Positions 236-28,986 are shown, counted from the stretch's first letter. The stretch: DNA of 32,000 bases from Copranaerobaculum intestinale (GCF_009831105.1 NZ_WUUQ01000001.1:180001-212000), one strand, 5' to 3'. Made by a program: numbers and translations. Notes: generated from the letters alone by a model not told the origin.

Positions 236-2490
<2,255 letters not shown>

Positions 2491-2493
2491 GGT

Positions 2494-4020
2494 TTATCCT
2501 TCCAGCTGCGCAAATTCAACAGCGAACGCATCCAGCGCTTTTCTGATTTCCGAATCCAGGCTTTCATCGATTTTCTGTTTTTCTTCCAGCTGCTTCATAA
2601 TTTCCTGATGGTTCCGTTCGATATAAGCATGCATTTCCTGTTCATATTTAGAAATTTTAGCCACCGGAATAGATTTTAGATATTTATTCTTCGCTGCAAA
2701 TAAGGATAATACCTGCTGCGGCATGGTCAGCGGATCATATTGCTTCTGAACCAAAAGCTGAGTCAGTCGCTCTCCATGATCCAATGTGGCTTTGGTCGCC
2801 GCGTCCAGATCGCTTCCGAATTTTGCGAATGCCTGCATTTCCCGATACTGAGCCAGTTCCAGCTTTAATGAACCGGATACCTGTTTCATCGCTTTGGTCT
2901 GTGCCGCAGAACCTACGCGTGATACCGAAAGTCCGGAATCAACGGCTGGACGAACACCGCTGTTAAACAGCTCAGTCTGCAAGAATATCTGTCCGTCTGT
3001 AATTGAAATAACATTGGTTGGAATATAGGCAGAAATATCACCTGCCTGCGTTTCGATGATCGGCAGCGCAGTCAAGGAACCGGCTCCGTATTCATCGCTC
3101 ATTTTCGCCGCCCGCTCCAGCAGTCTGGAATGCAGATAGAAAACATCGCCCGGATATGCTTCACGTCCCGGCGGACGTTTCAACAGTAATGACATGGTTC
3201 GATAAGCGACCGCATGTTTACTTAAATCATCGTAAACAATCAGAACATCCTCACCGTTTTCCATCCATTCCTCTCCGATAGCACAGCCCGCATAAGGAGC
3301 GATGTATTGAAGCGGTGCCGGCTCACTGGCCGTACTGGAAACGATGGTAGTATAGCTCAATGCATCGTGGGTACGCAGCTTTTCGACAATCTGCGCAACC
3401 GTAGACGCCTTCTGTCCGATTGCAACATAAATGCATTTGATTCCGGAGTCCTTTTGATTGATGATCGTATCGATCGCAATCGCAGTCTTTCCGGTTTGAC
3501 GATCGCCGATGATCAATTCACGCTGACCACGGCCAATCGGTATCATAGAGTCAATGATTTTGAGTCCGGTCTGCACCGGCTGATGTACTGATTTACGCGT
3601 CATGACCCCTGGCGCTACACGCTCAATCGGACGGCGTTTATTCGTTGTAAACGGCACTCCGCCATCAATCGGCTGACCCAGAGCATTGACGACACGTCCT
3701 AAAAGCTCATCACCGACCGGAACCTCTACGATCCGTCCGGTGCGCTTAACCTCGTCACCCTCTTTGATTCCCGAATCTTCGCCCATGAGCACCGCTCCGA
3801 CATGATCCTCTTCCAGGTTCAGCACCATTCCGTATACATCATGCGGAAACAATAAAAGCTCACCGGCCATTGCGTTTTCCAAACCATGCACCAACGCGAT
3901 GCCGTCTCCGATCGTGATTACCGTACCGGTTTCTCCAACCTCCAGCTTTTCATCATAGTGCTTGATCTGCTCTTTAATAATTTTACTGATCTCTTCAGGT
4001 CTTAAACTCACAGCTTTCAC
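2494..4020 (-). CDS. atpA: F1 ATP synthase alpha subunit
   Basis: 508 aa with Walker A GDRQTGKT and alpha-type sequence throughout. Confidence 0.98.
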
Positions 4021-4025
4021 CTCAC

Positions 4026-4568
4026 TTACAGGACTGCGCTGTCAACCGTATTGCGCATCCGATACAGACGTGTCTTTGCGGTATTATCCAGCACTTCATC
4101 CTTGATTTTAATCCGGAGCCCAGCCAGCAGACTTTCATCTACGCGGATCACCAGTTCAATTTTCTTCTTTGTTTTCGTTTCCAGCATTTTGATCAGATCA
4201 GCACGTTCCTGCTCATCAAGCGCATGCGCTGTGGATACATGTGCCACAACGATACCAAATGCTTCATTGTACTGCGCGATAAATGCCTTGACAATATCAA
4301 AGATACCGCCAAATCGGTTCTTATCGATCAGCAGCTTCAGGAAATACAATATATGAAGCGTTACCTCATTTTCAAAAACCGTAGTGAGGATCGCTTTCTT
4401 GTCATCCTTCGTTACTTTGGGATGTGCCAGCACCGTCATCATTTCCGGATTGGCCTTCAGCGTATCGGCAACCTTCAAAAGATCCTGCTTATAGCTGTCC
4501 CAGTTTTTTTCTTCCGATGCGAGTTCAAACAGCGCATCGCTGTATCCGCCGGCTACTCGCTTGTCCAT
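4026..4568 (-). CDS. atpH: F1 ATP synthase delta (OSCP) subunit
   Basis: 180 aa. Its position between atpF and atpA fits, as do the OSCP-like N-terminus (YSDALFELA) and C-terminus ([14 protein letters not shown]). Confidence 0.9.
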
Positions 4569-5074
4569 GATGCTTCACCAGCGTTATCAATGAAGTCCTT
4601 GACATAATCCTTATGCTTGGCTTCATCCAGTTCTTTTCCGACGATCTTCTCAGCAGCCAGAAAAGCAACTTCCGTAATCTGATCTTTGATTTCTTCCTTT
4701 GCCTGCAGTTTTTCCCGTTCGATATCCTGCAATGCCTTTTCTTTGATTTTATCGGCTTCCGCCTTTGCCTGTTTTAAAGCAGCCTGTTTTTCATCCTTGG
4801 CATGTACTTTTGCCTTATCGATGATTTCCAGCGCTTCTCCTTTCGCACCAGCCAGCTGGGTTTCATATTCCACTCGCATGGCTTCTCCAGCGGCCTTTTC
4901 ATCCGCCGCGGCTTTTAGATCACCGGCTATGGCGTCTTCCCGACGTTTCAGATAATCAAGAACCTTACTCCAGAAGAATTTATATGCGATCAGCACGATT
5001 AGAAATGTCGAAATCAGTACCATAAGCATATCTGTCACATTTAAGCGCAGATAATTATCGATTGTAATTCCCAT
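4553..5074 (-). CDS. atpF: Fo ATP synthase b subunit
   Basis: 173 aa with a single N-terminal TM helix followed by a long charged Ala/Lys/Glu coiled coil. Operon position fits. Confidence 0.9.
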   Translation of the reverse strand: MGITIDNYLRLNVTDMLMVLISTFLIVLIAYKFFWSKVLDYLKRREDAIAGDLKAAADEKAAGEAMRVEYETQLAGAKGEALEIIDKAKVHAKDEKQAALKQAKAEADKIKEKALQDIEREKLQAKEEIKDQITEVAFLAAEKIVGKELDEAKHKDYVKDFIDNAGEASWTSE

Positions 5075-5111
5075 AGCTGATCACCTCCTAATTAACAGCA
5101 TTCGGCTTTGA

Positions 5112-5372
<261 letters not shown>

Positions 5373-5382
5373 TTAATTACGA

Positions 5383-6093
5383 TTACGCTTCTTCCTCAGA
5401 TGCTTTAGCTTCACTTAAGAAGAAGCTTGCAAGAGTAAAGAAGATATAGGTCTGAATCAGACCAGAAAATATATCAAAATAGAAATGCAGGAACGGCGTT
5501 ACGACATATCCTAAGATCGTAAACGGCCATACCGACTGTAAAAGGCTGTAAAACAAGCCCATGATGATCGTTCCGGCAAGCAGGTTGCCGAACAGACGTA
5601 ACGATAGGGAAATCGGCAGTGCACAATCACCAATGATATTCAGCGGAGCCAAGAATGGGAATGGATCCAGCCATTGTTTCAAACGATTTACAAGACCGTT
5701 TTCCTTTACATTGGTGAACTGAATCAGCAGAAACATCATCAATGCCAGCGTAACGTTGACACTTAAATTTGATGTTGGTGGCTGAAGTCCCAAGAGCCCC
5801 AAAAGGTTGCTGACGGCCATCATCATGATCAAAGTTCCAAAGAACGGGATATAATGACGAGTCGATTCTTTCAGGTTGTCACCGATGATCGACTTGCATA
5901 GGCCAACAATCATTTCTGCGATCAGCAAGATCCCTTTGGGCGCCTTGCGTTCATCAGCAGTCTCAAATTTTTTGCCGACGATGATGAAGAACAGGCACAG
6001 TACCAGACCGATCATCAGCCAGTTAATAATGGATGTGTGCAGCTGTATATCCATACCGCCGATATGAATCAGCAGTCCGTCAAAGTTTTCCAC
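5383..6093 (-). CDS. atpB: Fo ATP synthase a subunit
   Basis: 236 aa polytopic membrane protein with the conserved Arg motif LSLRLFGNLLAG. Confidence 0.95.
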   Translation of the reverse strand: MENFDGLLIHIGGMDIQLHTSIINWLMIGLVLCLFFIIVGKKFETADERKAPKGILLIAEMIVGLCKSIIGDNLKESTRHYIPFFGTLIMMMAVSNLLGLLGLQPPTSNLSVNVTLALMMFLLIQFTNVKENGLVNRLKQWLDPFPFLAPLNIIGDCALPISLSLRLFGNLLAGTIIMGLFYSLLQSVWPFTILGYVVTPFLHFYFDIFSGLIQTYIFFTLASFFLSEAKASEEEA

Positions 6094-6096
6094 TAT

Positions 6097-6468
6097 CTAA
6101 CCTCCTTCCTTATACCTTGCGGTATCAATCAGAATTGCAAGTTTGTTGCAGAGATAACCGGCCAGCAGCGCAATCGGATGAATGCCCCGCCATACGGCCA
6201 AAGCGAAAATTACGGTATACATGAGATAACGGCGCATATAGCGAGTATATGCGAAGCGCGAGGCATCCTGAAGCTCGCCGCTTACCTTCTCACTCATACG
6301 GATGATACTATTGAAGCCTAATATTCCGGCACAGCCGCCGATAACGACACCGGCACTGACGGTAACGCCGGATTTTCCAAAGATTAGTATGGAACAAAGG
6401 GCAGCGATTATCACCAGAATCACATTCAGCCGACGGATTCTTTGATATTCCTGCTGTTCTTCATTCAT
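6097..6468 (-). CDS. atpI: ATP synthase protein I (AtpI-like small membrane protein)
   Basis: 123 aa, 3-4 TM helices, immediately upstream of atpB. 4-nt overlap with the preceding gene. Confidence 0.7.
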   Translation of the reverse strand: MNEEQQEYQRIRRLNVILVIIAALCSILIFGKSGVTVSAGVVIGGCAGILGFNSIIRMSEKVSGELQDASRFAYTRYMRRYLMYTVIFALAVWRGIHPIALLAGYLCNKLAILIDTARYKEGG

Positions 6469-6653
6469 GACTCATCACCCGTATCTTTCAATAATTGATA
6501 AAAGCTTCCGCCGATCGCATATGCTAACAGCGCCAGCATAATGATCGGGGTTGTATGTAACACTTCATCCAGCCAATGTCCGATGAACACCGCCAGTATG
6601 GATGAGATCGCCATCATCCCGATGAAACGCATTGCCCGGTGATAATCATGCAT
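6465..6653 (-). CDS. AtpZ/AtpI-family small membrane protein
   Basis: 62 aa with two TM helices. It is the first small gene of the atp cluster, and its ATG overlaps the upp stop by 1 nt (TAATG). Confidence 0.6.
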   Translation of the reverse strand: MHDYHRAMRFIGMMAISSILAVFIGHWLDEVLHTTPIIMLALLAYAIGGSFYQLLKDTGDES

Positions 6654-7426: not shown

Positions 7427-9403
7427 TTAGAGTGATTTCAGGGAGTCTTCCAGACATACCATAAAATTCTCATACGTTGGTACTTCCAGCACACTTAGCA
7501 TTGCTTTATTGTCATTCAGAAACTTCGCAAACGGTTCCTGAAACAGCAGAATGTCCTCTTTTTCTTCGCTGCCGATACTCAGCATGATGAAGCATTGTAC
7601 CGATTCACGGAACCAGATCATCGGTTTATCCAGAAAGAATACTGCTGCGAAGGATCTGTCCTGAAAGTTCTCCGAGGTTTTGAAGAATGCAATATTATTG
7701 CTGTTCTCTAACGGCGTCATGCGATCGCGCATTCGAATATCCGCTTCCAGCTGTTCCATTCCCGATAGCTTTTGGGCGATGCACTGCGACAACTCATGAA
7801 TGATCTCGTTTTTGGTGCCGCTGATCGATAGTTGAAAGAACAGATCCTTGCGAAAGATCGCGCGATAGCGTTCCAGCATGTACGGCTTATTCTGATAAAT
7901 ATAGCGTACCTTCTGATAATCGCTCTCCTGTAGATAAAAATCAAAGTGAATCAGTTTCGTATGCGGCAAATGAAACCCGGAAAACGGAAGATCGGTCAGG
8001 ATATAGTCATAGGTATGATCCTCGATCAGTTCCTGCTGATATTCCTCAAAGGTATCAATACTGCGGGCAAAGCGCGGAAACTGCTTAAACACCGTTTCGG
8101 CAATCGCCAGAGCGACATCACGTCCAACCGTTGCAATGACTGCGATTCGATTGTCTCTGCTGTAAGTCTTGTCAATTCGCGATAGTGCAGCCATAAACAG
8201 GTAAGCCATGTACATCACTTCGCAGCGATTGATTGGAAAACCAGTATAATTTTGGATATAGTCACAGCACAGAACCGCGTATTCCACCGCAATCGGACAT
8301 TTCTTGTTGACCAGATCACCGGAGATATAGTCAATAATTAAATTATACTCAAAACGAACTTTCATAGAAACAAAATGGAAGTCGAGCTGTTCCTTTAAAT
8401 GTTGATCATACAGCAGCTCCTGTGTGCCGGTTTTTTCATAGATGTAATGAAGCGCCTCATCAATCAGCATCATACCTTCATCAAGGCGCTTCTTTACGTG
8501 TACTTCCTGATACGAGAGGATGTTTCTAAAGCCAAGCATAATGATCGCTATGAAGGTGATATCTTCCGGATGTACTTCAAAATGAAGTTTTTTGGACAGT
8601 ATTTCCAGAATTTCTTTTGCTGCCCCGTAAGAGAAGGTATGGAAGGTTTTAAAACTTTCCTCACCGGTAAATGATACCACCTGTGCATAGCGGCGGCGGC
8701 TCAGCATAAGGATGATCGCAAGAATGACTTTTTTGGATCCCTGATGTGAAATAATATAATTGTGTTCACGCTTCAGGTAATTCATCATCGTTTCACGAAT
8801 GATCTTATAGGATGCTTCATCGATCCAAAAGAGATCATGATATTCCTTAACCTCATAAATCGTTCCCCGCATTGCCTGATAATACATATATTCATTAATT
8901 AAACAGATTCGTTTGTTTCGTTCCTTGCCGGTAACGATAAGGCCGTGATTTGGTGTCTGTTCCAGAAGCAGATCATAGTCTACAAAAATCTGGCGGATGG
9001 TTTTTAAAGTTGAGGTAATAATGGTTCGGCTTGAATAGATTTCATCGCACAGATCACTGATTTTGATATGCTCATTGGCCGACAGCAGCCGCTGCATCAG
9101 ATAATGCATGCGGTAATCGTTATTAGTATACGGATAAATACTCTGATAGGCGTTATGAAAATCAGCGATAAATCGTTTGAATTTATCGCTGTCTTCCCGG
9201 TGCAGATAAAAGCCGATACCGCTCTTCGCTTCAATATCGATACCATAGTCCCGATACAGAAACGTTGTCATGTGTTCGATATCCTTTCGGATCGTTTTAC
9301 CGGCTGCACCTACCAGGACAGAGAGCTGATCGGAATTGATAAATTCATCATTTTCGATCAGCTGCGTGAGGATGGCATACTGTCTTGTTGTAAGTCGTTT
9401 CAT
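7427..9403 (-). CDS. PRD-domain transcriptional activator of the MtlR/LicR/ManR (BglG-family) type: HTH-HTH(Mga-like)-PRD-PRD-EIIB-like-EIIA-like
   Basis: About 658 aa. The N-terminal DeoR-like HTH (RQYAILTQLIENDEFINSDQLSVLVGAAGKTIRKDI) is followed by a second Mga-type HTH (ISDLCDEIYSSRTIITSTLKTIRQIF...GLIVTGKERNKR), then helical PRD-like repeats and a C-terminal PTS-EII-like region. The track start at 9412 is GTG; ATG 9403 (MKRLTT) fits the AAAGG RBS better. Confidence 0.75.
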   Translation of the reverse strand: MKRLTTRQYAILTQLIENDEFINSDQLSVLVGAAGKTIRKDIEHMTTFLYRDYGIDIEAKSGIGFYLHREDSDKFKRFIADFHNAYQSIYPYTNNDYRMHYLMQRLLSANEHIKISDLCDEIYSSRTIITSTLKTIRQIFVDYDLLLEQTPNHGLIVTGKERNKRICLINEYMYYQAMRGTIYEVKEYHDLFWIDEASYKIIRETMMNYLKREHNYIISHQGSKKVILAIILMLSRRRYAQVVSFTGEESFKTFHTFSYGAAKEILEILSKKLHFEVHPEDITFIAIIMLGFRNILSYQEVHVKKRLDEGMMLIDEALHYIYEKTGTQELLYDQHLKEQLDFHFVSMKVRFEYNLIIDYISGDLVNKKCPIAVEYAVLCCDYIQNYTGFPINRCEVMYMAYLFMAALSRIDKTYSRDNRIAVIATVGRDVALAIAETVFKQFPRFARSIDTFEEYQQELIEDHTYDYILTDLPFSGFHLPHTKLIHFDFYLQESDYQKVRYIYQNKPYMLERYRAIFRKDLFFQLSISGTKNEIIHELSQCIAQKLSGMEQLEADIRMRDRMTPLENSNNIAFFKTSENFQDRSFAAVFFLDKPMIWFRESVQCFIMLSIGSEEKEDILLFQEPFAKFLNDNKAMLSVLEVPTYENFMVCLEDSLKSL

Positions 9404-9424
9404 GCATATCACAACCTTTTATTC

Positions 9425-9453
9425 ATTCTAAACTATCCTATTTCAATAGTAAA
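9425..9453 (-). promoter_or_regulatory. Possible own promoter of the regulator (TTTACT-17-TAGAAT)
   Basis: Minus strand: -35 TTTACT (9453-9448), 17-nt spacer, -10 TAGAAT (9430-9425), inside the 43-nt gap after the beta-subunit stop. The region is AT-rich, so a chance match is plausible. Confidence 0.3.
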
Positions 9454-9455
9454 TA

Positions 9456-10610
9456 TTAACCGAAGAACATCAGCAGTGCTCCGGCCGCAACCGCCGATCC
9501 GATAACACCGGCAACGTTTGGCCCCATTGCGTGCATCAGCAGGAAGTTGCTCGGATTGTATTTCTGTCCTTCTTTCTGAACGACACGGGCAGCCATCGGT
9601 ACGGCAGATACACCGGCAGCACCGATCAGCGGATTGATCTTGCCATGGGTTAGCTTGCACATAACCTTGCCTAACAATACACCGGCAGCCGTTCCGATAG
9701 AAAATGCAAGCAGACCCAAAATGATGATAGAAATCGTCTGCGTATTCAGAAAGTGAATGGCATCGGCTTTCGCGCCAACGGTAATGCCCAATAAAATAGA
9801 TACGATATACATCAGCGATTTGGTCACTGTTTCAACCAAATTCGGAACAACACCAGATTCCTTGATCAGATTGCCCAGCATCAGCATACCGATTAATGCG
9901 GCGGCCGATGGTAATAAAAGAATAACCAGTAAAGTTGTTGCGATCGGGAAAATGATGCGCTCCGTCTTAGAAACTTGACGCAGCTGAACCATTTTGATCT
10001 CTCGCTCTTTTTTCGTTGTCAGCAGTTTCATGATCGGCGGCTGGATAATCGGCACCAGCGCCATATAAGAGTAAGCGGCAATCGCGATCGGACCCAGCAG
10101 ATCCGATGCCAAACGAGAGGTCAGGTACAATGCAGTAGGACCATCTGCTCCACCGATAATACCGATAGAAGCTGCCTGCGGACCGGTAAAGCCTAACAGG
10201 ATCGCTCCGACAAAGGTGAAGAAGATACCAAACTGTGCCGCCGCACCGAGCAATAAGCTGCGGGGATTGGCAATCAGCGGTCCAAAGTCCGTTGATGCGC
10301 CGATACACAGGAATATCAACGGCGGATAAATACCTAGATCCGTTCCGATATATAAAAGCTTCAATAATCCTCCCTCTTCCATTAAGCCGGCCATCGGAAG
10401 ATTTACTAACAGCATTCCGAATGCGATCGGAATCAACAAATATGGTTCATAGCCCTTCCAAATAGCCAGATACAGAAACAGACAGGCAATACAAATCATA
10501 ATGAGATAGCCCGGTAATTGCAGCTCTAAACCAAACAGGTTCAGATCGAACATATCGAAGATATGATAGAAACCGGTACTCTCCCAGAAACTAGATAAGA
10601 TTTCTAACAT
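9456..10610 (-). CDS. Na+-translocating decarboxylase beta subunit (OadB/MmdB/GcdB family integral membrane protein)
   Basis: 384 aa polytopic protein. Family-typical stretches include [41 protein letters not shown] and [23 protein letters not shown]. Confidence 0.93.
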
Positions 10611-10626
10611 GGTTTACCTCCTTTCC

Positions 10627-10995
10627 CTATTCCAGGGTAATTAGCAGGTCACCATTTGCCACTGTGTCACCTTTGTTTACATGAACACCTTTTACCGTGG
10701 CATCAACCGGGGCAACAATTTCATTTTCCATTTTCATTGCCTCAAGAATGCACAGCGTATCGCCGGCTTTTACCGAATCCCCAGCTTTCACATCAACGGA
10801 CAGGATCGTTCCCGGCATCGGTGCATTGACCGCTCCCGCTTGCCCGCTTGGCTTCGGTGCGGCTGATTTTGCCTTTGGGGCAGCTTTCGGGGCTGCCGCA
10901 GCAGCTGGGGCAGCGCTGCTTTCAACACCGCCCAGCTCCTCTACTTCTACTTCATATAAAGAGCCATTTACTGTAATGTTGTATTTTTTAATCAT
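10627..10995 (-). CDS. Biotin carboxyl carrier subunit (biotinyl domain with Ala/Pro linker)
   Basis: Contains the biotinylation motif CILEAMKMENEI and the Ala/Pro-rich linker AAPAAAAAPKAAPKAKSAAPKP. I moved the start to ATG 10995 (MIKKYNITVNG), which follows a GGAG RBS. The track start at 11049 would overlap the preceding gene. Confidence 0.9.
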   Translation of the reverse strand: MIKKYNITVNGSLYEVEVEELGGVESSAAPAAAAAPKAAPKAKSAAPKPSGQAGAVNAPMPGTILSVDVKAGDSVKAGDTLCILEAMKMENEIVAPVDATVKGVHVNKGDTVANGDLLITLE

Positions 10996-11012
10996 TGTTT
11001 TCGTTTCTCCTT

Positions 11013-11351
11013 CTATCTCATTAAATCCCGTAATGCGGCTTGTTCCCATGGTGATTTTGCGCGGTCTGCGCGGCGGGCGCTGCGGACGATGAAGCTGTCC
11101 AAAGATTTCCCACTAGTTGCCGCTACCGCAGCAGCCAGCACCGCGATCAATTCCGTATCATCTGTATCCGGTACGCTTGCTTCAGCCGGTACCGCGGAAA
11201 CAGGTTCCGCGGCCGGTTTTTTCTTTCGATTTACCATCATGGCTACCAGATCGATAAAATAAGAGATGATGATCAGTGCTGAAAATACCAGAAGCATACT
11301 GAATATGGTAATGGTGAACGCATCACCCATGGATATTTGATTACCGTACAT
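11013..11351 (-). CDS. OadG-family small subunit (gamma/delta-type anchor of Na+ decarboxylases)
   Basis: 112 aa with one N-terminal TM helix (AFTITIFSMLLVFSALIIISYFI), a Pro/Ala linker, and the ELIAVLAAAVAA motif typical of OadG/MmdD-like proteins. Confidence 0.75.
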   Translation of the reverse strand: MYGNQISMGDAFTITIFSMLLVFSALIIISYFIDLVAMMVNRKKKPAAEPVSAVPAEASVPDTDDTELIAVLAAAVAATSGKSLDSFIVRSARRADRAKSPWEQAALRDLMR

Positions 11352-11368
11352 TTGTTACCTCCTTCGTA

Positions 11369-12607
11369 TTAGATGAACCAACCATAGACTCCGATCAAGC
11401 CAAGTGCAAATGCTACAGCGAGCGATACACCGGCACAGATCAGCTGCTGGCCAAATAATTTATTTTTATCGGTTTCCGCATTGGCTGAGGATAAGCCAAG
11501 TGCACCGATGGTGGATAATGGAGAAATGGTAACAACGTGCGCACCGATGATAACACCGCTCGCCAGAATCAGCGGAGCCATACCGCCAAGACCGGAGGCG
11601 ATATTGGTAACGGTCGGAATCAGAGTCGGCATAACGACGCCGGATGCACTGGATACTGCTGAAAGCAAACCGGCCATAACTGCCATAACGGAACCGGCTG
11701 TCTGCTCACTCATAATGTTAGACAACAAATCAGATAACAGAGTAATGCCGCCGGCTGTGTCAATTACCTTGATCAGTACGGTAACGCCGCCGACCAACAG
11801 CAGTGTTCCCCAAGGAATGCCCGCGATAACCGGCTTCTGATCAGCAGCCTTGCACAGCAGCAGAACGCCGCCGCCCAGCATTGCACATAAACCGATATCG
11901 TATTTTAAGAACATCGCCGCGATGATAACACAGACGATGACAAACAACGTAAGATACTGCTTAGTATTCAGCGCTTCAATTTTCTCTTCATCAGAGGTAC
12001 CCATATTTTTGATACCCCATCCTTTGAAAATCGTAAACAGAACTAAGAACTGTGCAACGGCAACCGTTGCCATGGTCAAAATAACCGGCAGATAATTGGT
12101 CATGCCCGCTTCTGCGCATAGGTTGTTCGCAATAATACCAGATGGTCCAAACGGTGTCATACCACCGGCCAGACCTCCGGTTGTAACGGAAATAATCATA
12201 AGGATATCAGAGATACCCTGACGTTTACCAACACTTGTGGCAATCGGGAAGATCAATGCCGGAGCAACGATCGGTCCTGCACCAACTGCAGATAATACAC
12301 CGGTAATGATAAAGAAGATAAACGGCAGCAGCTTGCTTTTTCCCTTAGCCAGCTGAACGATTTTTAAAGCAATCGTTTCCAGCGTACCGTTGACCTTTGC
12401 GATACTGAACAAAAACGTCATCGCTAACAGTGTAACGAAGGTTGATGTAGGGAAACCTCCCACGATTTCCTTTGCATTTAAACCTACAATAAATTGTCCC
12501 ATAATGAAGGCCATGCCAATACCGAGAATACCGGTATTGACATTAAAGAAATAACCAATGGCAATCGTAGCGACAAGGGAAAGTAGGGTTATGAGTGCTA
12601 TATTCAT
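11369..12607 (-). CDS. Ion-transporter-superfamily permease (CitMHS/ArsB/NhaD-like); putative organic-anion importer
   Basis: 412 aa with about 11-12 TM helices. It has two hairpin-like Gly/Ser/Thr-rich segments (TTGGLAGGMTPFGPSGIIANN and IGAHVVTISPLSTIGALG). The subfamily cannot be fixed by eye. Confidence 0.65.
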   Translation of the reverse strand: MNIALITLLSLVATIAIGYFFNVNTGILGIGMAFIMGQFIVGLNAKEIVGGFPTSTFVTLLAMTFLFSIAKVNGTLETIALKIVQLAKGKSKLLPFIFFIITGVLSAVGAGPIVAPALIFPIATSVGKRQGISDILMIISVTTGGLAGGMTPFGPSGIIANNLCAEAGMTNYLPVILTMATVAVAQFLVLFTIFKGWGIKNMGTSDEEKIEALNTKQYLTLFVIVCVIIAAMFLKYDIGLCAMLGGGVLLLCKAADQKPVIAGIPWGTLLLVGGVTVLIKVIDTAGGITLLSDLLSNIMSEQTAGSVMAVMAGLLSAVSSASGVVMPTLIPTVTNIASGLGGMAPLILASGVIIGAHVVTISPLSTIGALGLSSANAETDKNKLFGQQLICAGVSLAVAFALGLIGVYGWFI

Positions 12608-12631
12608 AAATTTTTTCCTCTTTTCTTTTTT

Positions 12632-14173
12632 TTACAAAGGTATGTTCCCGTGTTTTTTTGATACCGTGCTCACACGTTTGCCGGAAAGCATATCAAATGC
12701 ATTAATGATATATTGACGAGTTTTGCTCGGAACAATAACATCATCGATGTAGCCTAAACTTCCTGCTACATACGGATTTGCGACCGTATCTTCATATTCT
12801 TTGATCTTTTCAACTCGTAAGGCAGCCGGATCATCCGCAGCCTTGATTTCTTTTCTAAATACAATATTCGCCGCGCCGCTGGCGCCCATAACCGCGATCT
12901 GAGCACTAGGCCAAGCATAAACCAGATCCCCGCCAAGCGCTTTACAGCACATTGCGATGTAGGAGCCGCCGAAACCCTTACGCGTGATTACGGTAATCTT
13001 AGGCACGGTAGCCTCTCCATATGCGTACAGCATCTTTGCCCCATGGCGTATGATACCGCCGTATTCCTGGGCACTGCCCGGCAGGAAGCCAGGTACATCC
13101 TGCAGAGTCAGCAAGGGAATATTGAAGGCATCGCAGGTACGGATGAATCGTGCCCCCTTATCGGATGCATCGATATCAAGAGAACCGCCCATCATATTCG
13201 GCTGATTGGCAATTACTCCGACGCTCTTACCATCTAAACGCATATAACCGCATATTAAATTGCGGGCAAACAGCGGCTGATATTCCATAAACGTACCGTT
13301 GTCACTTAAAGACTCAATAACTTTTTTCATATCATACGCTTTGTTTGCCTGTTCTGGTATGATCGTATCCAGCTCCGGACACAAACGATTTACATCATCA
13401 TCGCAGGCAACCTCGGGAGTCGTTTCCATGTTATTCTGCGGAAGATAGGAAAGCAGCTCACGAATGCAGTCAAAGCATTCCTCTTCATTATCAGACATAT
13501 AGTGAGCAACACCGCTTACCTCATTATGTGTTCTGGCTCCGCCTAGCGTTTCCTGTTCAATTTCCTCGCCGGTTACAGTTTTAATAACATCCGGTCCAGT
13601 GATAAACATTCTTCCCACATTATTGACCATCAGAATAAAGTCGGTTAAAGCCGGAGAATACGTTGCCCCGCCGGCACATGGTCCCAGAATAACGGAAATC
13701 TGCGGAATTACACCGCTTGCGGAAATATTTCTGGCGAAGATTTCGCCATATCCCTGAAGAGCCGCGATCCCTTCCTGTACCCGGGCACCGCCGGAGTCGT
13801 TCATACCAATCAGCGGAACGCCGGCTTTGATCGCCAGATCCTGTATCTTGGTAATTTTTTTCGCGTGCATTTCGCCCAGTGATCCACCCAGCACCGTGAA
13901 ATCCTGTGCGTACACACATACACGGCGTCCGTTGATCAGACCGAAACCGCAGACTACACCATCAGCCGGGGTTTTTTTAGAGGCCATGCCGAAATCAGTA
14001 CAGCGGTGCGTTACAAAGGCATCAATTTCTTCAAAGCTGCCTTCATCCAGAAGCATTGCGATACGCTCACGCGCTGTCAGCTTGCCGCTGGCATGCTGCT
14101 TCTCAATGGCCTTTTCTCCGCCCCCCAGGGCAATGACCTTCTTACGTTCTTTTAAATCGTCTATTTTATTCAT
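12632..14173 (-). CDS. Acyl-CoA carboxyltransferase (alpha subunit of a methylmalonyl-/malonyl-CoA decarboxylase type enzyme)
   Basis: 513 aa. GKLTARERIAMLLDEGSF, DFTVLGGSLGEMHAKKI, MNDSGGARVQEG, SVILGPCAGGATYSPALTDF, GIIRHGAKMLYAY and the C-terminal KKHGNIPL are typical of the propionyl-CoA carboxylase beta / MmdA family. Confidence 0.93.
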   Translation of the reverse strand: MNKIDDLKERKKVIALGGGEKAIEKQHASGKLTARERIAMLLDEGSFEEIDAFVTHRCTDFGMASKKTPADGVVCGFGLINGRRVCVYAQDFTVLGGSLGEMHAKKITKIQDLAIKAGVPLIGMNDSGGARVQEGIAALQGYGEIFARNISASGVIPQISVILGPCAGGATYSPALTDFILMVNNVGRMFITGPDVIKTVTGEEIEQETLGGARTHNEVSGVAHYMSDNEEECFDCIRELLSYLPQNNMETTPEVACDDDVNRLCPELDTIIPEQANKAYDMKKVIESLSDNGTFMEYQPLFARNLICGYMRLDGKSVGVIANQPNMMGGSLDIDASDKGARFIRTCDAFNIPLLTLQDVPGFLPGSAQEYGGIIRHGAKMLYAYGEATVPKITVITRKGFGGSYIAMCCKALGGDLVYAWPSAQIAVMGASGAANIVFRKEIKAADDPAALRVEKIKEYEDTVANPYVAGSLGYIDDVIVPSKTRQYIINAFDMLSGKRVSTVSKKHGNIPL

Positions 14174-14196
14174 ATAAATTCTTCCTCTTTCATTTA

Positions 14197-15384
14197 TTAA
14201 AGAATTCCTTTTGCTTTTACAGCTTCGATTTCCTCATCGCTAAGTTGCAGGTAATTCTTTAAGATGTCATCGGTATTCTCGCCAAGCAGAGGTGCTGCTT
14301 CACGATAACCACCTTTGGTTTCAGACATTTTAATCGGTGTATTAGCCATCTTGAACGGTCCGACCCCTTCGTGATTTGCTTCGACGATCATGTCGCGAGC
14401 AAGAACCTGTTCATTGCTGACAACTTTATCGACAGTATTGACATAGGTAACCGGAACATTCGCTGCAACCAATGACTCATACCATTCATCACTGGTTTTA
14501 GACAGGAATATTTCATCCATGATCGGCTTCAGCTGATCATAGTTCTTTGTACGCAGCGGATTTGCGACAAAGCGCTCATCCTCGATCAGTTCTTCATGAC
14601 CGGCGGCAGTACAGAATTTTTTCCATAAGCCATTGTTGCCGATCGCGACCATAACCTTGACGCCGTCCTTACAAGTGAAATCTTCAAATGGCGTAATGGA
14701 TGCGTGACGGTTACCTCTTGGCTGCGGAATTTCACCATTTACACAATAGCGGGCAATCGCATTTTCCAAAATCGCAACCTGGCAGTCCAGCATCGCAACA
14801 TCAACTTTTTGTCCCTTACCGGTCTTTTCTTTGTGATACAGCGCCATCATGACCCCGATTGCTGAGAACAGTCCGGCGGTGATATCCCCGATGGATGCGC
14901 CGACACGCGTATACTGGCCTTCTCCCGGCCCAGTAATGCTCATGATACCGCCCATTGCCTGAACGACTGCGTCATAAGCCGGACGCTTGGAATACGGTCC
15001 GGTATGACCGAAGCCCGAGCATGCGGCATAGATCAGTTCCGGATTGATTTTCTTTAAATCCTCATAACCCATGCCCAATTTTTCCATGGTTCCCGGTTTG
15101 AAGTTTTCAACCACTACATCTGCTTTTTCAATCAACTGTTTGACCAATGCGATACCTTCCGGATTCTTCGTATCCACGGTAATGCTTTTCTTATTGCGGT
15201 TGATACTCATGTAATAGGCGGACTCCCCATTTACATAAGGTCCGTATGCCCTTGAATCATCCCCTGTTTTCGGCATTTCTACTTTGATGACTTCTGCTCC
15301 GAAATCGGCAAGGATCATCGTACAGTACGGTCCCGACAATACACGAGTAAGATCGACGACTTTAATACCTTCTAATGGCAACAT
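14197..15384 (-). CDS. Family III CoA-transferase (CaiB/BaiF/Frc superfamily)
   Basis: MLPLEGIKVVDLTRVLSGPYCTMILADFGAEVIKVE is the canonical family III N-terminus. The track start at 15405 is TTG; ATG 15384 follows AGGAGG at 7 nt. Confidence 0.9.
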   Translation of the reverse strand: MLPLEGIKVVDLTRVLSGPYCTMILADFGAEVIKVEMPKTGDDSRAYGPYVNGESAYYMSINRNKKSITVDTKNPEGIALVKQLIEKADVVVENFKPGTMEKLGMGYEDLKKINPELIYAACSGFGHTGPYSKRPAYDAVVQAMGGIMSITGPGEGQYTRVGASIGDITAGLFSAIGVMMALYHKEKTGKGQKVDVAMLDCQVAILENAIARYCVNGEIPQPRGNRHASITPFEDFTCKDGVKVMVAIGNNGLWKKFCTAAGHEELIEDERFVANPLRTKNYDQLKPIMDEIFLSKTSDEWYESLVAANVPVTYVNTVDKVVSNEQVLARDMIVEANHEGVGPFKMANTPIKMSETKGGYREAAPLLGENTDDILKNYLQLSDEEIEAVKAKGIL

Positions 15385-15458
15385 TTCAGTTTCCTCCTTC
15401 TGCAACCCATTATGCTCAGCAGTTTTCTGTAAAATTCACAGTCCCTGCTCATACCCTC

Positions 15459-15487
15459 ATTATAAATAGGGTCGAAACGCATCTAAA
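15459..15487 (-). promoter_or_regulatory. Candidate promoter of the decarboxylase operon (TTTAGA-17-TATAAT)
   Basis: Minus strand: -35 TTTAGA (15487-15482), 17-nt spacer, -10 TATAAT (15464-15459). It lies about 70 nt upstream of the CoA-transferase ATG. Confidence 0.4.
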
Positions 15488-15679
15488 CATTGAAAAAAAC
15501 CTTTAAAAACTGAAGATTTAATACCTTTTATAGTTCTATATCAGGTATAAAAAGTAATTTTTTCTGCTTAACAGTTCCACAAAAACAGACTTTTTCCTTA
15601 ATATAAGGTAATTAAAATACAACATCTAATGGAAATATTCGGAAACAGTGATTTAATAACGGATTTTAACAAAATTGTC

Positions 15680-15709
15680 CGTAAACCAAATCCAATTTTG
15701 AAGTTTACA
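15680..15709. promoter_or_regulatory. BirA operator-like inverted repeat cGTAAAC-N16-GTTTACa
   Basis: GTAAAC (15681-15686) and GTTTAC (15703-15708) form an inverted repeat 45 nt upstream of birA. The left arm GTAAACCAAAT resembles the E. coli bioO arm TGTAAACCAAAT. The downstream BirA has an N-terminal HTH. Confidence 0.55.
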
Positions 15710-15753
15710 TAAAAGTATGAATTTTCTAAGATTAAGACAGGAGGTGATCCAGC

Positions 15754-16713
15754 ATGAAATCAGAATTATTGAAATTATTGATTCAGCATCAGGGAACGGT
15801 CGTCAGCGGTGAGGCAATCGCCCGATCTTTGCATATAACCAGAGCCGCGGTGTGGAAAAGTATCCGGGTGCTAATTGAGGAAGGCTATGATATCCAGCGG
15901 TTTCCGGGAAAAGGGTATGCCTTGAGCTTAACCGATGATTTGCTCAGTGAAGCTGCGATACAAAAGCATCTTCCGATCGATCATGACTTTCATATTGATA
16001 TCCGCAAAACGGTAACATCTACCAATGACGCCGCGAAAGAGCTCGCCTTTCATAATGCTCCCGAACGTACCGTGGTGATCAGTGAACATCAAAGCAAAGG
16101 CAAGGGACGAAAAGGGAAACAGTTTTATTCTCCGAAGCAGGCAGGTCTTTATATGAGCCTAGTACTAAGACCTGCGTGCTCCATTCATGAATCGCTTTTA
16201 ATTACAGCAGCCGCAGCGGTGGCAGTCCGCCGTGCTATAAAAGATGTCTGCGGCATTGATGCCGATATAAAATGGGTCAATGATGTGATGATCGATAATC
16301 ATAAAATTTGCGGCATTCTTTGTGAAGGAAATCTGGAAACCGACGCTGCCCGCTTTGAATGGGCAGTACTGGGAATCGGTATCAATTGCTGGGAAGAAAC
16401 ATTCCCGCAGGATCTGGAACCCATAGCCGCAGCACTGCACACCTATACTGACCAACCGTTTACCAGAGCAGCCCTGGCCGCTTCGGTTCTGACACATTTT
16501 GATGCATGTTATCGGCATTTGGATCAGCGTGAGTATCTTGATGAATATCGGCAGGCTTCCATATTGATGAACAAGCGGATCATTATCTATGAAGGGAATC
16601 ATATTATGGAAGGAACTGCGGTCGGGATAGACGAACAAGCAAATCTTTTGGTACAGATGAAAAATCGCACCCAAAAAGTTTTCAGCGGGGAAGTGAGCGT
16701 GAGAGCCCAATGA
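15754..16713 (+). CDS. birA: Bifunctional biotin-protein ligase / biotin operon repressor
   Basis: 319 aa with an N-terminal winged HTH (GEAIARSLHITRAAVWKSIRVLIEEGYDI), the ligase motif GKGRKGKQFYSP, and KWVNDV. Confidence 0.93.
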   Translation: MKSELLKLLIQHQGTVVSGEAIARSLHITRAAVWKSIRVLIEEGYDIQRFPGKGYALSLTDDLLSEAAIQKHLPIDHDFHIDIRKTVTSTNDAAKELAFHNAPERTVVISEHQSKGKGRKGKQFYSPKQAGLYMSLVLRPACSIHESLLITAAAAVAVRRAIKDVCGIDADIKWVNDVMIDNHKICGILCEGNLETDAARFEWAVLGIGINCWEETFPQDLEPIAAALHTYTDQPFTRAALAASVLTHFDACYRHLDQREYLDEYRQASILMNKRIIIYEGNHIMEGTAVGIDEQANLLVQMKNRTQKVFSGEVSVRAQ

Positions 16714-17237
16714 ATACAAAAAAAATGACCCTATCAGCCATTTTTACTGCTTTGATCTGTGTTGGTGCCTTTTTACGGATTCCAGTACCGATCGTGCCCT
16801 TCACCCTCCAATTTTTATTTGTCGTATTATCCGGCATGCTGTTAGATTGGAAATATGGGATGCTGAGTGTGCTTGTATATATCGCGCTTGGGCTGGCTGG
16901 ACTGCCGGTATTCACCAGCGGCGGCGGATTAGGCTATGTACTGCATCCAACCTTTGGTTTTCTGTTAGGATTTCTTCCCGCGGCAGCTATCAGCGGTTAC
17001 ATTACCCGACATATTCATCATCGTTTATCACCGCTAATTGGCGGAATAGTCGCCATCCTTTGTATGTATCTGATCGCTTTGCCTTATTTGTATTTTATTC
17101 TCACCTATGTCATGGATATTGCAATTACTATTCCCGCTTTATTCACTTCCTACTGCTTTATCTTTCTGCCCGGTGATACTGTCAGCGTCTGCTTGAGCAC
17201 TTTCCTGTATCGCCGCTTATCACACATTATTAAATAA
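16710..17237 (+). CDS. bioY: Biotin transporter BioY (ECF S-component)
   Basis: 175 aa with 5-6 TM helices. RIPVPIVPFTLQ and GGLGYVLHPTFGFLLGF are BioY-typical. The start overlaps the birA stop as ATGA. Confidence 0.9.
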   Translation: MNTKKMTLSAIFTALICVGAFLRIPVPIVPFTLQFLFVVLSGMLLDWKYGMLSVLVYIALGLAGLPVFTSGGGLGYVLHPTFGFLLGFLPAAAISGYITRHIHHRLSPLIGGIVAILCMYLIALPYLYFILTYVMDIAITIPALFTSYCFIFLPGDTVSVCLSTFLYRRLSHIIK

Positions 17238-17329
17238 TGATGTCAAATCGAAATGAAAGCATCAAAAAAGGAAGAAATTTGATCGTACGATTTTGAAAAA
17301 AGCGATACAATAGTGACAAAGGAGAATAA

Positions 17330-17698
17330 ATGATGAAACATATAGTAGAACGATTTGTAAAATCAACCGATCTGAATGATCATGGAACGCTGTTTGCCGG
17401 ACAAGGCTCCAGTTGGATGGTGGAGGCGGGCTTTCTCTCTGCCGGTGCCGCAGTACAGGGCAACCATCAGATTGTTTGCCGATGTATTCAAAATCTGGAG
17501 TTTCTGCTGCCGATTCCGCTGGGAGCCCTTATTCATATGGAAAGTGAAATAACCGCAGTCGGTACAACCAGCATTCAGGTGCACTGTGAAGCCTGCGGTG
17601 TGCTGGATCCGAATCAAATTTATATCCGTTCCGATATTATCTTTGTCACAACTGATAAAGAAGGAAACAAAGTACCGCACGGATTAACCGCACAATAA
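17330..17698 (+). CDS. Hotdog-fold acyl-CoA thioesterase
   Basis: 122 aa. DLNDHGTLFAGQGSSWMVEAG ... LEFLLPIPLGALIHMESEITAVGTTSIQV follows the YciA/BFIT-type thioesterase pattern. GGAG RBS. Confidence 0.7.
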   Translation: MMKHIVERFVKSTDLNDHGTLFAGQGSSWMVEAGFLSAGAAVQGNHQIVCRCIQNLEFLLPIPLGALIHMESEITAVGTTSIQVHCEACGVLDPNQIYIRSDIIFVTTDKEGNKVPHGLTAQ

Positions 17699-25817: not shown

Positions 25818-26705
25818 CTATTCCTCTTCTAAGCAATCCAAGATTTCTAATATGCGATTTAGATCACTGACTCCGCGGTAACGAATACTGATCTGTTTTT
25901 CATCAATATGTACCTGTGTCTGAAATTTATCCTGCAGCCGCAGCCGTACCGGACGAAGATTTACATCCTCAGTCTTTGCTTCCTTTACTTCAGCAGCGGG
26001 GGCATTAACCTTTTTTACCAATGCCTCTACTGCCCGAACCGAAAGCTTTTCATGAATAGCCTTTTTAGCTACTGCTTCCATTTGCTTTTCATCCTTTAAA
26101 GCCAACAGCGCACGTACGTGACCCATGCTTAATTCTTTTTCAATAACAAATTGCTGTACCTTTTTCGGCAGCTTCAGCAGCCGCAGCATGTTGGCTACAT
26201 GTTCACGCGATTTACCAATGCGGGATGCAAGCTCTTCCTGGGTATAAGATAATTTGCGAATCAGCTTCTCATAAGCGGTTGCCTCTTCGATTGCGTTTAG
26301 GTCTTCACGCTGAATATTTTCAAGCAGGGCAATTTCCATCATCTGCTGATCATCAAATTCAACAATGATGGCCGGAATCGTTTCTAATCCGGCAAGACGA
26401 CTTGCCCGTAAACGGCGTTCTCCGGTTACCAGCTCATATCCCTTTACCGCTTTTTTTACCAAAATCGGAGTAAATACACCATGCTGGCGAATAGATTCAG
26501 CGAGCTCATGAATCTTGTCATCATCAAAATCCTTACGGGGCTGATAGGGATTGGCTTTGATTTCATCTACAGAAATTTCAATTTTTCCGCTGCTGTTTGA
26601 AAGCTCGCTTTTGCCCTGCTGAATATCTTCCAGCACCGAATCAATATTCATGCCGAATATTTCACTGAGTCCCTGACCGAGACGGGCATCATTTTTCTTA
26701 GCCAT
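25818..26705 (-). CDS. spo0J: Chromosome partitioning protein ParB/Spo0J
   Basis: 295 aa. ParB box NPYQPRKDFD, the CTP/arginine patch GERRLRA, and HTH SREHVANMLRLLKLP...LSMGHVRALL. Confidence 0.95.
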   Translation of the reverse strand: MAKKNDARLGQGLSEIFGMNIDSVLEDIQQGKSELSNSSGKIEISVDEIKANPYQPRKDFDDDKIHELAESIRQHGVFTPILVKKAVKGYELVTGERRLRASRLAGLETIPAIIVEFDDQQMMEIALLENIQREDLNAIEEATAYEKLIRKLSYTQEELASRIGKSREHVANMLRLLKLPKKVQQFVIEKELSMGHVRALLALKDEKQMEAVAKKAIHEKLSVRAVEALVKKVNAPAAEVKEAKTEDVNLRPVRLRLQDKFQTQVHIDEKQISIRYRGVSDLNRILEILDCLEEE

Positions 26706-26710
26706 TTACC

Positions 26711-27487
26711 TCACCCTCTTTTCTCATTCGTTTTTACGACTTCGTTTGCAAGTCCGGCATATGCTTTGGCGCCTTCACAGCGCACATCATATTCAAAAAT
26801 AGACATACCGCGGGAAGGTGCTTCCGACAGCTTGATATTACGCGGTATATAGCTGCGGTATACTCGATCTTTGAAGTGCTTGCGGACTTCCTGCTGAACC
26901 TCTACGCTCAATTTGGTGCGCGCATCATACATCGTAAGCACAACACCTTCTATCATCAACTCTTTATTAAACAGCTGCTGAACCAGACGGATGGTCAAAA
27001 GCAGCTGCGTGACTCCCTCCAGGGCATAATACTCACACTGCACTGGAATCATCACTGAATCAGCTGCCGTCAGCGCGTTGGTATTCAACAAGCCCAAAGA
27101 AGGCGGACAGTCAATGATGATATAATCATATTCTTCTTTTACGGTATCTAATTTATTTTTCAGCAGCTGTTCCTTACCAGCTTCAAACTTCACCATTTGC
27201 AGATCCGCTCCGGATAATGAAATATTGGCCGGAATAATATCGAGCGGCGGAGTACTCAAGTGCTGAATCAGATCATGGGGATGATAATCCTCCATAATTA
27301 GATTATAAACACTCAGCTTGCTGTCTTTTGTTGTTGCACCTACCCCTTGTGTTGCATTGCCCTGCGGATCGAAATCCACCAGCAGCACCTTATTTCCCAG
27401 ATAACCAAGTCCGGCCGCCAGATTGATTGCCGTTGTGGTTTTACCGACGCCTCCCTTCTGGTTGGAGACTGCTATGATTTTTCCCAT
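26711..27487 (-). CDS. soj: Chromosome partitioning ATPase ParA/Soj
   Basis: 258 aa. Deviant Walker A SNQKGGVGKTTT, LLVDFDPQGN and IIIDCPPSLG. Confidence 0.96.
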   Translation of the reverse strand: MGKIIAVSNQKGGVGKTTTAINLAAGLGYLGNKVLLVDFDPQGNATQGVGATTKDSKLSVYNLIMEDYHPHDLIQHLSTPPLDIIPANISLSGADLQMVKFEAGKEQLLKNKLDTVKEEYDYIIIDCPPSLGLLNTNALTAADSVMIPVQCEYYALEGVTQLLLTIRLVQQLFNKELMIEGVVLTMYDARTKLSVEVQQEVRKHFKDRVYRSYIPRNIKLSEAPSRGMSIFEYDVRCEGAKAYAGLANEVVKTNEKRG

Positions 27488-27502
27488 TTCTTCACGTCCT
27501 AT

Positions 27503-28267: not shown

Positions 28268-28986
28268 TTTGTTCCTCCCCTTAAAGGATGCTTCTTTATT
28301 GACGCAAATGGGCGCGGATATTGTTTTGGTGTAACATGTTCTTTATAAAATTCAAGATTGATTCGCTTTGAACCATCCTGCAAGGTATTTATATAGGTAT
28401 GTGCAAGACGACAGCCTAATTTCTGAATGCCTGCTTCAGCCTCATAATATTCTTTCGTGCCGGCGCTTCCCTTCATTGCCAAAAATGTTCCCTTTAGCTT
28501 TACCAGCGGAATACACAATTCACTCAGCATAGCGAGGTTCGCTACCGCTCGGGCCGTCACAAAATCATAATACTCTCGCCGATCGGAAGCATGATCCTCA
28601 GCCCGTTCATTGATCAGTTCCACCGAAAGCCCCAGCTCCTGAGTCAGTGCAGTTAAAAAAGAAATTCGCTTGCCCAGCGGTTCTACAATCGTTACCGACA
28701 GCTGCGGGTATACGATTTTCAGCGGAATGCTTGGAAACCCCGCTCCCGCTCCGACATCACAAAGTTTTCCAGTGATCAAAGTATCAAAAGAAGGAAGAAT
28801 CGAATCCAAGAAATGTTTTTCATAAATATCCGCTACATCCGTAATTGCGGTTAGATTCATTTTTTGATTCCATTCCTGCAGCAGCTGTGCATATTCCGCA
28901 AATTGCTTCAACTGCTGATCGCTCAGACAGACACCATGATTCTGCAGCTGTTCTTTGAAATTTTCCAGATAGTTTTCATTCCTCAT
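28264..28986 (-). CDS. rsmG: 16S rRNA (guanine527-N7)-methyltransferase
   Basis: SAM motif CDVGAGAGFPSIPLKI plus GidB-like sequence. The track start at 29007 is TTG; ATG 28986 follows a GGAGGG RBS. Confidence 0.93.
   Translation of the reverse strand: MRNENYLENFKEQLQNHGVCLSDQQLKQFAEYAQLLQEWNQKMNLTAITDVADIYEKHFLDSILPSFDTLITGKLCDVGAGAGFPSIPLKIVYPQLSVTIVEPLGKRISFLTALTQELGLSVELINERAEDHASDRREYYDFVTARAVANLAMLSELCIPLVKLKGTFLAMKGSAGTKEYYEAEAGIQKLGCRLAHTYINTLQDGSKRINLEFYKEHVTPKQYPRPFASIKKHPLRGGTK

Follow-up and report, generated by a model that had tools for sequence, protein, structure and literature searches.

A 32,000-nucleotide (nt) stretch of the genome of Copranaerobaculum intestinale DONG20-135 (Erysipelotrichaceae; GCF_009831105.1, NZ_WUUQ01000001.1:180001-212000; hereafter the window) contains a minus-strand operon of six co-directional genes (9456-15384). 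Our analysis, which was computational throughout (profile searches, locus comparison and trees), suggests with moderate confidence that this operon serves malonate uptake, the transfer of coenzyme A (CoA) from acetyl-CoA to malonate, and the Na+-pumping decarboxylation of malonyl-CoA. What the analysis shows directly is the gene content and order, the protein families, the conserved catalytic motifs, and a module that is conserved and tied by phylogeny to malonate-transporter loci. Malonate would enter through a MatC-type permease, after which a family III CoA-transferase would move CoA from acetyl-CoA to malonate and release acetate. The carboxyl group of malonyl-CoA would then pass to biotin, regenerating acetyl-CoA, and the membrane-embedded beta subunit, anchored in the complex by a small subunit, would decarboxylate carboxybiotin and export Na+. 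The net conversion would be malonate + H+ -> acetate + CO2, coupled to the export of Na+, and the resulting gradient could be used by an Na+-type F1Fo ATP synthase encoded nearby. A PRD-type regulator downstream probably turns the operon on, and the neighboring birA-bioY pair would provide for biotinylation. Which acid is used, which way the reaction runs, how it is coupled to Na+ and how the operon is regulated are what we infer. Malonate is favored because the transferase belongs to a clade sister to transferases linked to the malonate transporter genes madLM, and because an analogous operon carries madLM itself. Transferase, permease and alpha subunit are each placed with malonate-linked or self-contained systems rather than with succinate clusters. 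An earlier reading made from the sequence alone (the sequence-only reading) had proposed a closed cycle in which a dicarboxylate is imported, loaded with CoA and decarboxylated by an Na+ pump; the conserved linkage of these genes and the lack of mutase and epimerase genes in the flanks that could be read support that cycle, and malonate, then one option among several, is now preferred on account of the madLM-linked relatives.

Calling of open reading frames (ORFs) and direct reading of the sequence agreed with the sequence-only reading on the six genes, their coordinates, their shared direction, their strong ribosome-binding sites (RBSs) and their spacing of 16-24 nt. From the transferase to the beta gene, the gaps measure 23, 24, 17, 17 and 16 nt, and an RBS of the GGAGG/GAGGA type stands 6-9 nt 5' of every one of the six starts. 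Longer starts offered by the ORF tool for the transferase (TTG at 15405) and the carrier (ATG at 11049) are less likely, as the RBSs favor 15384 and 10995. The transferase, at 395 amino acids (aa), and three other operon proteins are exact matches to database proteins of C. intestinale. All six family assignments were recovered far beyond chance in Pfam and NCBIfam profile searches (Table 1).

The decarboxylase part of the operon has the composition of the Na+-translocating biotin-dependent decarboxylases (OAD/MMD/GCD, named for oxaloacetate, methylmalonyl-CoA and glutaconyl-CoA; TC 3.B.1), with an OAD_beta pump, an alpha subunit, a carrier bearing the (A/V)MKM motif and an OadG-type anchor encoded together. 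The beta subunit carries GGADGPT and a second conserved motif of 17 residues, and these motifs presumably hold the OadB residues D203, N373, G377, S382 and R389 at the same spacing; the decarboxylase complex is predicted to export Na+. The alpha subunit is close to PccB/12S (620-695 bits) and distant from GcdA (83-92 bits), and its position in the PccB/12S/Mmd clade implies that the substrate should be a 2-carboxyacyl-CoA. Glutaconyl-CoA and oxaloacetate were rejected as substrates, the alpha subunit being far from GcdA and no OadA-type subunit having been found. Oxalate was rejected on chemical grounds, because oxalyl-CoA has no alpha-carbon to stabilize the carbanion required by a biotin carboxyltransferase. 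Among the loci used for comparison, each given an L number, the alphas linked to a transferase (the six-gene operons, L099, L023 and L094) group apart from those of L011 and L095, which pair with 100% support. Two markers for the alpha subunit were dropped. Asp422 of PccB, considered as a discriminator between malonyl-CoA and methylmalonyl-CoA, is Ile406 here, is also Ile in the Thermotoga maritima enzyme and in L095, and is Leu in L011. The subfamily model for mmdA (TIGR01117, cut-off 999 bits), considered as a test of function, gave 846 bits for the C. intestinale alpha, 833-875 bits across the six-gene operons and 915-928 bits for the others; as the alpha of the succinate cluster L011 itself falls short (928 bits), a missed mmdA cut-off is a weak discriminator. 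The equivalog cut-offs for MmdC and MmdD are missed as well, the carrier scoring 122 of 200 bits (NF047903) and the anchor 26.5 of 150 bits (NF047902).

The match of the transferase to CoA_transf_3 covers the whole Pfam model (positions 1-366 of 366), and Asp167 within GDITAG, which we take to be the counterpart of the catalytic Asp of Frc, is invariant across 22 transferase homologues. The protein falls below every NCBIfam equivalog cut-off, including those for succinate-glutarate (355 of 750 bits), oxalate (YfdE; 339 of 522 bits) and mesaconate (328 of 700 bits) transferases, and therefore sits in no characterized specificity group, so that malonate is deduced from gene context. In a neighbor-joining tree (300 bootstraps), the transferases of the six-gene operons formed one clade with those of L087, L088 and L090 (100% bootstrap), while the succinate-type transferases of L011, L018, L095, L012 and L014 formed a separate one (98%). 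The nearest outgroup of the six-gene-operon transferases consisted of madLM-linked transferases. Another madLM-linked transferase, that of L010, grouped loosely with transferases of AllF/AllG clusters (39-50% bootstrap).

Through look-ups of exact proteins and a scan of metagenomes, this six-gene order turned up in at least five further lineages with transferases 72-97% identical to that of C. intestinale: L001-L004 (97%), L096 (84%), L085/L097/L098 (78-79%), L092 (77%) and L093 (72%). The linkage of permease, transferase and decarboxylase was conserved in every related locus examined. Wherever a contig extends far enough, the regulator gene comes next after the operon (the L093 contig ends ~80 nt past the beta gene), and birA-bioY precedes the operon in the Erysipelotrichaceae-like loci. 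Variant operons are arranged as alpha, transferase, permease, regulator, beta and carrier (L099); transferase, permease and regulator (L100); and alpha, anchor, carrier, beta and permease (L107). In L093 (390-7744), the six genes stand alone, with no birA-bioY, immediately downstream of a phage-type integrase gene, a neighborhood that suggests that the module is able to move horizontally. The alpha gene is in two pieces in the metagenome contigs L004 (2790-4345) and L110 (1486-3029), through a frameshift or an assembly error; these splits could reflect occasional pseudogenization or sequencing noise.

Beyond the six-gene operons, a scan of a genome collection with the transferase alignment returned 80 loci, the best match being 63% identical and most lying in unrelated contexts, and the source genus was not recovered; most homologues with 45-63% identity had no adjacent decarboxylase. 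Among transferases at least 63% identical, 12 of 12 independent contexts sampled included decarboxylase genes and/or a MadLM/MatC transporter. Transferase genes directly follow madL-madM, both confirmed by Pfam (MadM, 366 bits), in L087 (71% identical) and in L088/L089 (~64-65%), and in L087 a MatC permease of the C. intestinale type lies beside madLM and the transferase. The Anaerovirgula multivorans locus L010 runs from a dCache sensor kinase and a sigma-54 activator through the transferase, madL and madM to an alpha gene. Here madLM occupies a place between transferase and alpha, and the permease of the six-gene operons stands between alpha and anchor; by analogy, L010 is built like the six-gene operons but uses the second of the two known families of malonate transporters. 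In L023 (Dethiosulfatibacter), L094, L108, L109 and L110, the transferase and decarboxylase genes share an operon that includes no transporter gene. The locus L090/L091 (5422-11203) encodes a malic enzyme, a divergent OAD_beta protein (45% identical), a 42-aa ORF, a succinate-type MatC permease and a malonate-clade transferase in that order, a mixed composition with neither an alpha nor a carrier gene nearby. The Sporomusaceae locus L095 combines mmd genes, a two-component system, a transferase of the succinate-type clade and a major facilitator superfamily transporter. In clusters L005-L008, the transferase is accompanied by an AllF/FdrA-like protein and AllG (L005, 4854-13488; L007, 5932-12888), with a cyclase-family gene displayed in both L005 and L007, a C-N hydrolase added in L005 and a cytosine/purine permease in L007. 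AllFGH is the oxamic transcarbamylase of Escherichia coli (PMC11326118), and these clusters could form a route from oxalurate or oxamate to oxalyl-CoA; an analogous route from pyrimidine-derived ureidomalonate to malonate is a speculation.

The permease was correctly placed in the ion-transporter superfamily by the sequence-only reading, and the profile search narrows it to the MatC type, which that reading had not seen: the MatC_N match (120 bits, where 23 is the cut-off, and covering model positions 1-149 of 149) assigns it to the MatC family (TC 2.A.101). Identity amounts to 46-77% with the permeases of other six-gene operons and L087 taken together (46-53% with that of the madLM locus L087), and to 30-35% with the type found in L018 (Phascolarctobacterium), L011 and L090. 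Among transporters of solved structure, the Na+/dicarboxylate symporter VcINDY comes closest, as a full-length but distant match (E ~1e-4). We propose that this permease takes up malonate.

Several observations weigh against malonate as the substrate. A literature search on Copranaerobaculum returned no physiological data on malonate use, and the specificity of MadLM is established in Malonomonas only (PMC8085960). The alpha subunit is not separable by sequence from a methylmalonyl-CoA enzyme, and the equivalent of PccB D422 is Ile, Val or Leu in all decarboxylase alphas compared, that of the succinate cluster included. MatC_N scores are nearly equal for permeases of the C. intestinale and Phascolarctobacterium types, so that the family name amounts to no substrate call and was dropped as one. 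Transferases 61-63% identical also occur in the AllF/AllG-type clusters, perhaps for oxalate or oxamate.

An unlikely alternative is an ordinary succinate-to-propionate pathway, in which succinate would be imported, succinyl-CoA would be formed at the expense of propionyl-CoA, and (S)-methylmalonyl-CoA, produced by an unlinked B12-dependent mutase and epimerase, would be decarboxylated by the Na+ pump. The mmdA model is the one on which the alpha subunit scores best, and, as a correction to the sequence-only reading, a permease and a family III transferase are not foreign to mmd-type clusters: Phascolarctobacterium-type succinate clusters hold both, in different subclades (PMC7568257). Cluster L011 encodes MeaB, a methylmalonyl-CoA epimerase (TIGR03081, 149 bits, above its cut-off of 115), alpha, carrier and beta, followed by a CitMHS transporter, a MatC-like permease and, last, a transferase, and the Phascolarctobacterium locus L018 encodes beta, MatC-like permeases and a transferase; transferases of such clusters are 57-59% identical to ours. 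In addition, the transcriptome of Phascolarctobacterium faecium revealed strong expression of an SLC13-type transporter adjoining the succinate-pathway cluster when a partner provided succinate (PMC7568257). Nevertheless, mutase, MeaB and epimerase genes are absent from the 32 kb of the window, where the sequence-only reading had likewise seen no mutase or epimerase, and from the readable flanks (up to ~10 kb) of L001, L085, L092, L096 and L097, while L011 keeps MeaB and the epimerase within its cluster. The transferases, alphas and permeases of succinate clusters fall into clades or subfamilies of their own, the nearest transferase outgroup is linked to madLM, and the L093 copy is a bare six-gene unit beside an integrase. 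As a side observation, L011 is labeled an Acholeplasmataceae metagenome-assembled genome, and its complete succinate-type cluster is followed by Maf, MreB and MreC (RadC, MreB and MreC hold that position in L018); MreB and MreC are unexpected in the wall-less Acholeplasmataceae, so the L011 contig may be mis-binned. It is also quite unlikely that the same closed cycle runs on methylmalonate or on a malonate bearing some other 2-substituent, for example ethylmalonate, with CoA drawn from propionyl-CoA or butyryl-CoA. The cycle logic would be identical, the alpha subunit is Mmd/PccB-like with nothing in its sequence that excludes a methyl branch, and Mmd-type enzymes accept both malonyl-CoA and methylmalonyl-CoA. 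However, the transferase clade is linked to just two transporter families, MadLM and MatC, and both are annotated for malonate. Moreover, Mmd-type enzymes use the (S)-form, and a transferase yielding the (R)-thioester would call for an epimerase, of which the operon has none.

Two further explanations concern the role of the transferase and the direction of the pump. That the CaiB-family protein is an AMACR-like racemase or epimerase preparing the correct stereoisomer, as the sequence-only reading had entertained, seems to us scarcely credible: the fold is shared and alpha-methylacyl-CoA racemases are detected among solved structures at 142 bits, but SUGCT (320 bits), YfdE (302 bits) and Frc-type enzymes (296 bits) are much closer, the best NCBIfam models are all transferases, and this reading was dropped. 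A transporter-linked clade also fits substrate activation, and an operon with neither transferase nor ligase could make no thioester. Reverse operation, in which the complex would act as an acetyl-CoA (or propionyl-CoA) carboxylase driven by the Na+ gradient for biosynthesis, with the transferase and permease used in export or salvage, is very improbable. Decarboxylase Na+ pumps are reversible in vitro and birA-bioY adjoins the operon; against this, an operon that includes a permease and a transferase and has a regulator of the substrate type (PRD-type here, a dCache kinase with a sigma-54 activator in relatives) would rather serve to break down an acid taken up from outside, and fatty-acid synthesis genes were linked to the operon in no locus.

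The MmdABCDE enzymes of Veillonella parvula and Propionigenium modestum (EC 7.2.4.3) share with the proposed malonate pump the subunit families, the two-step carboxybiotin mechanism and the PccB/12S/Mmd clade of the alpha subunit. Unlike them, the C. intestinale operon has alpha, carrier and anchor subunits that score below the Mmd cut-offs, lacks an epsilon subunit (for which the short gaps leave no room), contains an internal permease and CoA-transferase, and has no mutase or epimerase nearby. The Phascolarctobacterium-type succinate cluster, comprising mutase, MeaB, epimerase, mmd genes and SLC13/MatC-like transporters, resembles the operon in its mmd-type pump, MatC-like permeases and family III transferase (PMC7568257). 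It differs in the MeaB and epimerase genes seen in L011, in the separate transferase clade (98%), in permeases that share 30-33% identity with ours at two succinate-cluster loci, and in an alpha subunit that is 60% identical. Like Rhizobium matABC, the operon encodes a MatC-family carrier alongside enzymes for the formation and decarboxylation of malonyl-CoA. In Rhizobium, the synthetase depends on ATP, the decarboxylase is soluble and independent of biotin, and no energy is conserved, whereas C. intestinale would employ a CoA-transferase and a membrane Na+ pump. For Sporomusa malonica, Dehning and Schink in 1994 reportedly described a malonyl-CoA route comprising a CoA-transferase and a malonyl-CoA decarboxylase, by enzyme assays only. 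The chemistry proposed here is alike, with CoA passing from acetyl-CoA to malonate, free malonyl-CoA being decarboxylated and energy conserved, and our gene content fits that route. The Sporomusa route, however, is defined by activities and has no reference sequences, and C. intestinale is a gut bacterium of the Erysipelotrichaceae. Literature searches on S. malonica genes and on malonate CoA-transferase found no paper assigning genes to the malonyl-CoA route; S. malonica is cited in a review (PMC8085960). In Malonomonas rubra, whose MadA-H and MadLM (EC 7.2.4.4) share with the proposed system the net reaction, the energy coupling, a biotin carrier and a beta-type pump, and whose transporter genes accompany relatives of the C. 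intestinale transferase, malonate is activated on a dedicated acyl carrier protein instead of free CoA (PMC8085960). Neither an acyl carrier protein nor a MadA-type acyltransferase is encoded in the window, the C. intestinale beta subunit reaches 170 bits on the MadB model (TIGR03136, cut-off 597), and the transporter is of the MatC type rather than MadLM; the operon thus falls outside the Malonomonas type.

Table 1. Features of the window, with positions counted from its first nucleotide.
Feature	Position	Strand	Evidence and remarks
F-type ATP synthase c subunit, Na+-binding signature	5112..5354	-	in atp operon ~236-6653
Mga/PRD/EIIA2-type transcription regulator	7427..9412	-	HTH_11, Mga, PRD and PTS_EIIA_2 domains; directly 3' of beta gene
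Na+-translocating carboxybiotin decarboxylase beta, 384 aa	9456..10610	-	OAD_beta 2e-156; TIGR01109 488 bits, cut-off 191
Biotin carboxyl carrier, 122 aa	10627..10995	-	Biotin_lipoyl 5e-22; Ala/Pro-rich linker; AMKM biotinylation motif, Lys88
OadG/MmdD-like small membrane anchor, 112 aa	11013..11351	-	OAD_gamma 2e-16; TIGR01195 50 bits, cut-off 36
MatC-type permease, ion-transporter superfamily, 412 aa; proposed malonate uptake carrier	11369..12607	-	MatC_N 1.5e-34 and CitMHS
Carboxyltransferase alpha, 513 aa; proposed malonyl-CoA:biotin carboxyltransferase	12632..14173	-	Carboxyl_trans 1e-200
Family III (CaiB/BaiF) CoA-transferase, 395 aa; proposed acetyl-CoA:malonate CoA-transferase	14197..15384	-	CoA_transf_3 2e-132
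Probable operon promoter	15459..15487	-	TTTAGA, 17 nt, TATAAT; consensus scan; ~75 nt 5' of transferase start
birA-bioY (biotin ligase/repressor, biotin transporter)	15754..17237	+	Pfam/NCBIfam; divergent from operon
Small hotdog (4HBT) thioesterase-like protein	17330..17698	+	4HBT 6e-5; link to operon uncertain

The regulator gene on the far side of the beta gene did not figure in the sequence-only reading. The ORF tool starts it at GTG 9412, giving a 661-aa protein whose exact sequence is absent from the database; ATG 9403 is likelier and yields the 658 aa called in close relatives. It stands directly after the operon in L001/L002/L004, L085, L092, L096 and L097, while the variants L099 and L100 have it within the operon; other relatives carry dCache kinases and sigma-54 activators instead. 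We propose that it is an operon-specific activator under control of the phosphotransferase system (PTS). On the opposite side, both hexamers of the probable promoter and the T-rich stretch preceding them are kept upstream of the operon in four lineages. An imperfect 17-nt palindrome (15517-15552; 82% complementary, 2-nt spacer) lies ~30 nt 5' of the -35 box predicted for the operon and may be bound by the PRD-type regulator. An Rfam scan of the window detected no riboswitch and no other RNA family.

Flanking birA-bioY and a hotdog gene, both noted in the sequence-only reading, were borne out by the profile search. The adjacency of birA-bioY to the operon is kept in L001-L004, L085, L092, L096 and L097, and we propose that the pair supplies and attaches the biotin cofactor. 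Just 5' of birA, an inverted repeat GTAAAC(N23)GTTTAC (15670-15719) resembles a BirA operator and is conserved in L001 and L092; birA-bioY is thus probably autoregulated by biotin. A homologue of the hotdog gene lies near bioY in L001-L003 (tblastn, 82-83%), and a 121-aa 4HBT-like gene occupies that place in L092.

The ATP synthase is encoded ~2 kb beyond the regulator gene. The best solved matches of its c subunit are the Na+-dependent rings of Acetobacterium woodii, Fusobacterium nucleatum and Ilyobacter tartaricus, and its Q (GIGQG) and ETTGIY residues are identical to those of A. woodii c2/c3. The organism therefore probably has an Na+-coupled F1Fo ATP synthase, and this Na+-type c subunit makes an Na+ cycle plausible. 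The block from the thioesterase gene through bioY, birA and the operon to the regulator (7427-17698) lies between glyA and upp-atpI, which are normally adjacent in Bacillota. The accessory genes of the glyA/upp block differ, with an extra HTH_19 gene in L001, Exo_endo_phos in L092 and an energy-coupling factor (ECF) component plus CTP_transf_like in L085, and the block looks like an insertion hotspot or island. Farther along, at 25818-29007, two ParB-family genes, a ParA-type ATPase gene and rsmG (GidB) stand in a row; such a set is typical of the region near the replication origin in Bacillota, and the operon is probably close to oriC.

Malonate occurs as a metabolite in plants and in the host and inhibits succinate dehydrogenase. 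Few mechanisms besides substrate-level and electron-transport phosphorylation conserve energy, and Na+ pumps driven by decarboxylation are one of them. For such pumps, only four substrates are listed in a review (PMC8085960). There is, in our estimation, an even chance that the operon represents the gene set of a fifth kind, in which a decarboxylase of free malonyl-CoA is combined with a built-in malonate carrier and an acetyl-CoA:malonate CoA-transferase in a portable six-gene cassette. Such a cassette would supply genes for the Sporomusa-type route and define a new specificity group within family III, and, together with the Na+ ATP synthase, it would allow a gut member of the Erysipelotrichaceae that is otherwise fermentative to make ATP from malonate decarboxylation alone. 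The analysis offers concrete candidates in the form of a malonate-specific clade of family III CoA-transferases, a subfamily of MatC-type carriers and a clade of transferase-linked alpha subunits. Automatic labels such as methylmalonyl-CoA decarboxylase or CoA:oxalate transferase may misdirect predictions of propionate or oxalate metabolism. If the proposed function is correct, a member of the human-gut Erysipelotrichaceae would be able to draw energy from malonate.

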